499 nucleotides of DNA from sequence record EF517063.1. One strand, written 5' to 3'. This document shows, in pieces, positions 3 to 499 of the stretch. The notes below the pieces were generated by a model. The model was not told the origin of the DNA. It saw nothing but the letters and a program-made list of their open reading frames with translations, and ran no database searches. The position numbers and the translations under genes are program-made. Each line of letters begins with the position of its first letter. Positions within the stretch are counted from its first letter, which is position 1. This stretch comes from a phage.

Positions 3-239
3 CAGGCAATCTTAGAGAAAGATATGCTGCATCTATGTAAGCAGGTCGGCTCAGGTGCGATTGTCCCCAATGGTAAACAGAAGGAAATGATTGTCTAGTT
101 TCTGACACACGGTATGGAAGGATTGATGACATTCGTAGTACGTACATCATTTCGTGAGGCCATTAAGGACATGCACGAAGAGTATGCAGATAAGGACTCT
201 TTCAAACAATCTCCTGCAACAGTACAAGAGGTGTTCTGA
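3..239 (+). CDS. 5.5: T7-like gene 5.5 protein (H-NS-binding host-takeover protein); 5' end lies outside the window; frame interrupted by an in-frame amber TAG at 96-98 (nonsense allele / possible pseudogene)
   Basis: Frame 3 translates as QAILEKDMLHLCKQVGSGAIVPNGKQKEMIV-[TAG]-FLTHGMEGLMTFVVRTSFREAIKDMHEEYADKDSFKQSPATVQEVF-[TGA 237-239]. I recognise this as T7 gp5.5 from memory. The 78 in-window codons plus about 21 missing N-terminal codons give the expected 99 aa, and L30 falls where the literature places it. The stop overlaps the next gene's ATG (TGATG). It is absent from the ORF track because the TAG splits it into pieces too short to be listed. Confidence 0.8.
96..98 (+). other. 5.5: In-frame amber (TAG) codon at codon 53 of gene 5.5
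   Basis: Read directly: att gtc TAG ttt ctg. The frame is open on both sides, from the window start to 95 and from 99 to the TGA at 237-239. Confidence 0.85.
226..231 (+). promoter_or_regulatory. Ribosome-binding site (Shine-Dalgarno) for gene 5.7
   Basis: AAGAGG sits 7 nt upstream of the ATG at 239, inside the 3' end of gene 5.5. Confidence 0.6.
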
Positions 240-448
240 TGTCTGACTACCTGAAAATGCTGCAAGCAATCAAAAGTTGCCCTAAGACTTTCCAGTCCAA
301 CTATGTACGGAACAATGCGAGCCTCGTAGCGGAGGCCGCTTCCCGTGGTCACATCTCGTGCCTGACTACTAGTGGACGTAACGGTGGCGCTTGGGAAATC
401 ACTGCTTCCGGTACTCGTTTTCTGAAACGAATGGGAGGATGTGTCTAA
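239..448 (+). CDS. 5.7: T7-like gene 5.7 protein, 69 aa (in T7, an inhibitor of sigma-S-containing host RNA polymerase)
   Basis: ORF-track ORF 239..448, MSDYLKMLQAIKSCPKTFQSNYVRNNASLVAEAASRGHISCLTTSGRNGGAWEITASGTRFLKRMGGCV, which I recognise as T7 gp5.7. ATG at 239-241 is preceded by the Shine-Dalgarno-like AAGAGG (226-231). It overlaps the 5.5 stop upstream and its TAA (446-448) overlaps the 5.9 ATG. Confidence 0.9.
   Translation: MSDYLKMLQAIKSCPKTFQSNYVRNNASLVAEAASRGHISCLTTSGRNGGAWEITASGTRFLKRMGGCV
433..439 (+). promoter_or_regulatory. Ribosome-binding site (Shine-Dalgarno) for gene 5.9
   Basis: GGGAGGA, with the GGAGG core at 434-438, lies 9 nt upstream of the ATG at 448, inside the 3' end of gene 5.7. 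Confidence 0.65.
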
Positions 449-499
449 TGTCTTGTGACCTTGTGACTATTCCACACGATGTGTGGAACGATATACAGA
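448..499 (+). CDS. 5.9: T7-like gene 5.9 protein (RecBCD inhibitor, DNA mimic); N-terminal 17 codons only, 3' end outside the window
   Basis: ATG 448-450 overlaps the 5.7 TAA (TAATG) and has GGAGG 9 nt upstream. Translation is MSCDLVTIPHDVWNDIQ..., closely resembling the T7 gp5.9 N-terminus as I recall it (MSRDLVTIPRDVWNDIQ...). The fragment is too short to appear in the ORF track. Confidence 0.75.
   Translation, partial: MSCDLVTIPHDVWNDIQ

Follow-up and report, generated by a model that had tools for sequence, protein, structure and literature searches.

Gene content of the window

The window, i.e., the whole 499-bp stretch of phage DNA that was analysed (sequence record EF517063.1), aligns without gaps to positions 16912–17410 of the bacteriophage T7 genome (V01146), and window base 1 corresponds to V01146 16912. 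It contains gene 5.5 from codon 22 onward, the whole of gene 5.7 and approximately the first 17–18 codons of gene 5.9; the start codon of gene 5.5 lies 61 bases upstream of the window. Wild-type and laboratory T7 records, which are the best matches in the phage collection, are all equidistant from the window at 98.4%, while the closest natural relative reaches 94%. This places the window on the backbone of T7 proper rather than on that of a wild relative. The features identified are the following:

3..95, plus strand: gene 5.5 codons 22–52, still translated; identical to T7, matching PF11247 profile positions 22–52 with E 1.7e-17 (translation)
96..98, plus strand: amber codon TAG, allele Q53am of gene 5.5 (C96T; CAG in T7) (T7 alignment, translation)
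99..239, plus strand: gene 5.5 codons 54–99 and the native TGA, cut off from the 5.5 start; PF11247 profile positions 54–99, E 1.8e-28
114..239, plus strand: in-frame ATG open reading frame of 41 aa, corresponding to gp5.5 residues 59–99 (ORF list)
226..227, plus strand: tandem GG>AA change; gp5.5 codon 96 CGG to CAA (R96Q) (T7 alignment)
239..448, plus strand: gene 5.7, intact, 69 aa; G257A (V7M) and C418T (silent) (ORF list, T7 alignment)
448..499, plus strand: start of gene 5.9 (RecBCD inhibitor); C454T (R3C), G476A (R10H) and G499A (G18S) (T7 alignment)

Genes 5.5 and 5.7 overlap at the TGATG sequence at 237–241, and genes 5.7 and 5.9 follow in this order, as in V01146. The downstream part of gene 5.5 (99–239) bears two alterations, the silent C101T change at F54 and the tandem G226A/G227A change that produces R96Q. 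The latter precedes the ATG of gene 5.7 by 12–13 nt and adjoins the GAGGT ribosome-binding site of this gene (228–232). Missense changes are also found further downstream, one in gene 5.7 (V7M) and three in the opening codons of gene 5.9 (R3C, R10H and G18S).

An amber codon interrupts gene 5.5

Translation of positions 3–239 yields QAILEKDMLHLCKQVGSGAIVPNGKQKEMIV*FLTHGMEG...ATVQEVF*, in which the TAG at 96–98 is the sole internal stop. As gene 5.5 starts at V01146 16851, this TAG occupies codon 53, where the T7 reference reads CAG (Gln). Apart from the TAG, the frame is open as far as the TGA at 237–239. Both pieces score above the gathering cut-off (25) of the Pfam profile PF11247 (Phage_T7_55), the N-terminal piece with 63.8 bits and the C-terminal piece with 99 bits. 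Since the two halves match profile positions 22–52 and 54–99, the stop falls exactly on profile position 53. An earlier sequence-only reading had placed the amber at codon 53 of a frame open to the TGA at 237–239, flanked by gp5.5 on both sides, and had proposed that a single C-to-T transition turned CAG into TAG and shortened the product to a 52-aa N-terminal fragment. The translation, the profile matches, the alignment to the T7 reference and the codon count agree with this description in each respect. The gene 5.5 copy does not form a single uninterrupted reading frame of about 95–102 aa and, judging from the letters of the record, is a disrupted copy that does not encode a full-length family member.

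In every phage record with a gp5.5 homologue (577/577), the match spans at least 80% of the 99 residues. Family members range in length from 95 to 102 aa and are uninterrupted. Residue 53 is Q in the 12 close relatives (12/12), in T3 and in Serratia phage SM9-3Y, and is replaced by Glu or Ala in two distant homologues. Neither a stop nor a gene boundary is found at codon 53 in 12 IMG/VR relatives, 4 distant homologues and the 577 phage records. The sequence-only reading had noted that a stop or a naturally shorter gp5.5 in the reference or in related phages would undo its proposal of a nonsense allele; the reference and the relatives all carry a sense codon and a full-length protein, and the amber observation stands. 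Q53am is a nonsense allele and does not reflect a natural layout of the gene.

Conservation in the family peaks in the SPATVR sequence near the C-terminus (SPATVREVF motif), which is located downstream of the stop. Within this motif, Arg96, changed to Gln in the window, does not vary among six homologues with identities as low as 34%. T7 gp5.5 counters H-NS by binding the H-NS oligomerisation domain (PMC8501957); a search for a solved structure of gp5.5 found none. In T3, T7M and Yersinia phages, the similarity to the window is confined to approximately positions 201–498, at about 93% DNA identity, and their gp5.5 proteins are only about 49% identical. On sequence grounds, a mosaic boundary appears to lie close to where gene 5.5 ends at its 3' side in T3-type phages.

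Spectrum, density and coding effects of the substitutions

The window differs from T7 at nine of 499 bases (1.8% of sites), and all nine differences are G:C>A:T transitions (C96T, C101T, G226A, G227A, G257A, C418T, C454T, G476A and G499A). Twelve IMG/VR relatives, each of which differs from T7 at 37–116 sites in the region, served as the natural comparison set. In these relatives, G:C>A:T changes account for 162 of the 710 differences (23%), the remainder being A:T>G:C transitions and transversions. Under the spectrum of the natural relatives, the probability that nine of nine changes are G:C>A:T is 1.7e-6.

Coding effects were evaluated at the 240 G:C sites of the window. G:C>A:T changes at these sites would produce 13 stop, 147 missense and 80 silent outcomes, corresponding to expected fractions of 5%, 61% and 33%, respectively. 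The observed hits comprise 1 stop, 5 missense and 3 silent changes. The coding effects of the nine hits thus fit unselected mutation or relaxed selection. As 13 of the 240 G:C sites yield a stop when hit, the probability of at least one nonsense codon is 0.39 for nine random G:C>A:T hits in the window. The stop is unusual with respect to wild-type T7, as no other record has it, but not with respect to the local mutation load. The occurrence of a stop among nine G:C>A:T changes in 499 bases points to heavy mutagenesis and relaxed selection.

Mutagenesis of T7 with either nitrosoguanidine or hydroxylamine gives spectra dominated by GC>AT changes, and a UV experiment on T7 gives a different spectrum (PMC6042481). 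A UV origin, which the tandem change (CC>TT) might recall, was rejected; eight of the nine sites are dipyrimidine sites, yet about 75% would be expected by chance (an estimate made by eye). An APOBEC-type preference for 5'-CC/5'-TC is not significant with nine sites, and was likewise set aside.

Mutagenised T7 isolates carry the same kind of changes

Five genomes of a laboratory series were used as references: T7+ (AY264774), K (AY264775), K115 (AY264776, derived from K), P (AY264777) and P82 (derived from P). We take the K and P isolates (Bull et al. 2003, J Mol Evol 57:241) to be terminal lineages of the T7 phylogeny that Hillis et al. 1992 generated experimentally with the help of a mutagen. 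Genome-wide, K and P carry 412 and 304 substitutions relative to T7+, 94% of which are G:C>A:T in each isolate. The same 499-bp stretch contains 10 substitutions in K and 5 in P, every one of them G:C>A:T. The density of substitutions in K is 1.06% genome-wide, and 12% of its 499-bp windows contain at least nine. Premature stops occur in genes 4.7 (W48*), 5.7 (W52*) and 5.9 (W13*) of K, the latter two adjoining gene 5.5, and in genes 0.4 (W28*) and 4.2 (W59*) of P. Genes with a TGG>stop change are annotated as "similar to gene X" features in these records (13083–13490, 16306–16515 and 16515–16673 in AY264775; 1255–1410 and 12147–12485 in AY264777).

Because K and P show the same spectrum, the same density and stops in accessory genes, a gene 5.5 stop amid dense G:C>A:T changes is routine for such lineages. 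A passage in PMC2491900 describes the T7 lineages of Hillis et al. 1992 as grown with the mutagen present. No other record carries the Q53am allele itself; the same type of event is already known from mutagenised T7. Gene 5.5 of K (AY264775, locus 581–880) is open; it features three missense changes (D20N, A23T and G39S), one ambiguous base and the same silent C>T change found at window position 101.

The window is distinct from K, K115, P and P82, and is neither identical to nor clearly descended from any of them; none of the five genomes of the series matches it. C101T is the only change it has in common with K (chance p = 0.32), and none is shared with P. A short-segment search for the variants at 226/227/257 or 418/454/476 found them in no other record, and C101T only in K. 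An exact 30-mer spanning the TAG had no match in viral, genome or metagenome contigs; exact-protein look-up returned no record for gp5.7 carrying V7M or for the 41-aa reading frame, and a megablast search against plasmids and E. coli genomes returned no match.

K and P have 15 G:C>A:T sites in common (25 sites of any type), compared with 5.7 expected (Poisson p ~9e-4). Recurrent mutation sites therefore exist, and the overlap suggests hot spots of mutation, parallel selection or a common ancestry. In both isolates, a purine stands 5' of the mutated G in 82% of cases (80–84%) vs a background of 51%. This 5'-purine-G bias is a clean alkylating-agent context signature, and could be used for typing other mutagenised records. 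In the window, 5 of the 9 mutated G residues have a 5' purine; at the K/P rate, five or fewer would be found with a probability of 0.066, a figure drawn from nine sites only. The same small sample gives a likelihood ratio of about 4.8 toward a context-neutral mutagen. As the bias is not evident in the window, the mutagen or the experiment may differ from that of K and P, and the context hints weakly at hydroxylamine-type or deamination chemistry, or at a different experiment.

K115 lacks the segment T7+ 16850–17486 (~637 bp), and with it genes 5.5, 5.7 and most of 5.9; the loss arose during fitness recovery. The junction joins T7+ 16849 to 17487, and the corresponding BLAST pieces overlap by 18 nt (about 2719–2736 of the AY264776 locus). 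The sequence suggests that the deletion of 5.5–5.9 may have occurred between short repeats during fitness recovery.

Gene 5.5 is conditionally dispensable

The V01146 annotation states that gene 5.5 "permits growth on lambda lysogens". In PhageMaP data, the essentiality of 5.5 is raised mainly on lambda-lysogenic hosts (PMC11482910). The same study also places 5.5 among generally high-essentiality genes (PMC11482910), and its loss may consequently cost fitness even on ordinary hosts. Because K115 has lost 5.5–5.9, and both V01146 and PhageMaP tie 5.5 to lambda lysogens, the gene is conditionally dispensable and not needed on ordinary hosts. For this reason, the sequence-only reading finds no support where it framed the allele as a classical am mutant that has to be grown on a supE/supF host.

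The 52-residue truncated gp5.5 would probably be non-functional. The stop also abolishes the possible 5.5–5.7 frameshift fusion product annotated in T7. Expression of gene 5.7 itself should largely persist, as judged from its own GAGGT site and from its ATG, which overlaps the old TGA, although the 226–227 change lies beside this site. The phage is expected to be restricted on lambda lysogens and to grow near-normally elsewhere, a suppressor being unnecessary. Poor plating on lambda lysogens is expected because the allele removes the C-terminal half of the H-NS antagonist; such a plating defect is an already known phenotype of 5.5 mutants and carries little biological weight.

Origin of the Q53am allele

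We consider that the stop most probably arose as a by-product of chemical mutagenesis in a laboratory T7 lineage and knocked out a gene that is conditionally dispensable (probability roughly 0.8). A laboratory T7 genome would have been heavily exposed to a G:C>A:T-specific mutagen, candidates being alkylating (nitrosoguanidine) or cytosine-modifying (hydroxylamine) agents, and the lineage would have been propagated under weak purifying selection. One of the hits would have changed codon 53 of gene 5.5 from CAG to TAG. Translation from the 5.5 start would then stop after 52 residues, and the C-terminal half, including SPATVREVF, would be lost together with any 5.5–5.7 fusion product. The phage would remain viable without a suppressor on standard non-lysogenic laboratory hosts, since gp5.5 is not required there. 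The alignments, the codon counts and K115 show the allele, the spectrum and density of the changes, the absence of selection and that the gene can be dispensed with. We infer a chemical mutagen as the cause, and likewise its identity and the experiment of origin; for the latter, the mutational signature is the evidence at hand, because the exact sequence is absent from the collections searched.

The window is accordingly best annotated as part of a mutagenised laboratory genome. Other oddities in this genome, such as missense changes at invariant residues and further stops, are to be viewed likewise rather than taken for natural biology. An exclusive G:C>A:T spectrum serves as a quick test for mutagenised records.

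The nine changes could instead be absent from the phage and reflect cytosine deamination damage (due to heat, age or bisulfite-like treatment), a consensus called from a mutagenised mixed population, combining variants that never shared one genome, or an in silico alteration. Cytosine deamination produces exactly C>T and G>A, and an artefact would also account for a window sequence that occurs in no collection searched and that lacks the 5'-purine bias of MNNG-type mutagens. However, damage seldom reaches the consensus at 1.8% of sites. Moreover, the deposited isolates K and P, which are clonal, have the same density and spectrum in the region, and a real genome of such a kind is unremarkable. 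As clonal isolates of the same density exist, an artefact need not be invoked, and we regard it as unlikely.

Strain LE392, on which T7 is often grown, carries amber suppressors and is lambda-lysogenic, a background in which 5.5 matters. The allele might have been deliberately isolated or selected and kept on a suppressing or recoded host (supE/supF or release-factor-1-deficient), where full-length gp5.5 is made. The stop formed is a TAG, neither TAA nor TGA, and a passage in PMC8923235, citing Hammerling et al. 2014, describes T7 evolved on amberless or recoded hosts, on which amber codons are tolerated. The identity of the stop is nevertheless uninformative, because CAG exposed to a C>T mutagen can yield only TAG; within the window's part of gene 5.5, a G:C>A:T change can create a stop at five sites, and at four of these the stop is TAG. 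Eight further G:C>A:T changes surround the allele, one of the affected codons being that of the invariant R96, which speaks against selection for gp5.5 function. In addition, the heat-adaptation lines on recoded hosts, as given in that passage of PMC8923235, fixed only about 10 substitutions per genome, far below the density of the window. Deliberate selection or maintenance of the amber is therefore distinctly unlikely. That the amber is actually decoded on a suppressing or RF1-deficient host, position 53 being occupied by a suppressor-inserted and possibly non-canonical amino acid, is if anything slightly less probable; if true, the window would capture a phage on its way to an altered genetic code.

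A natural T7-like phage in which gene 5.5 was recently pseudogenised or is naturally split is very improbable and close to refuted. In its favour, accessory genes of this block are variably present in relatives, and in some records the match to the window begins only at about position 97, 165 or 201. In contrast, the backbone is T7 itself, no natural relative being closer than 94%, and 77% of natural divergence is not G:C>A:T. The matches to at least 80% of gp5.5 in all 577 phage records also argue against it, as does residue 53, which is Q throughout the twelve close relatives and is encoded by a sense codon in the distant ones.

Finally, rescue in the absence of a suppressor is highly improbable, whether the TAG underwent programmed readthrough or ATG 114 served for re-initiation and gave a complementing fragment 59–99: this in-frame ATG, 15 nt past the stop, is the only re-initiation candidate, but direct reading reveals no AGGAGG-like Shine-Dalgarno motif upstream of it (TCTAGTTTCTGACACACGGTATG), the window contains no match to Rfam and no known recoding signal, the fragment carries R96Q at an invariant residue, and no relative among the 577 phage records shows such a split arrangement.

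Comparison with known systems

The gene in the window resembles members of the PF11247 H-NS-binding family (Studiervirinae) in that both halves are gp5.5 and the gene is located upstream of 5.7 and 5.9. Unlike these members, the copy in the window is interrupted at position 53.

Classical T7 amber mutants (Studier collection) are conditional lethals in essential genes, obtained in a near-wild-type background and grown on suppressor hosts. As in these mutants, a sense codon was converted to TAG by one transition of the kind induced by mutagens. In contrast, gene 5.5 is non-essential on non-suppressing hosts, as K115 is viable, and the allele is accompanied by eight extra substitutions in 499 bases, which is not a near-wild-type background.

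The closest parallels are found in the mutagenised series. The window shares with K and P the T7 backbone, a proportion of G:C>A:T changes of 94–100%, a density of 1–2% in the region, unselected missense changes and stops in accessory genes. It differs from them in the stop in gene 5.5, which both K and P keep open, and in the frequency of 5'-purine-G sites (5/9 vs 82%). As in K115, gp5.5 has been lost in a laboratory T7; K115, in which the loss is compatible with viability, lost the gene by deletion during fitness recovery, whereas the loss in the window occurred by a point nonsense mutation.
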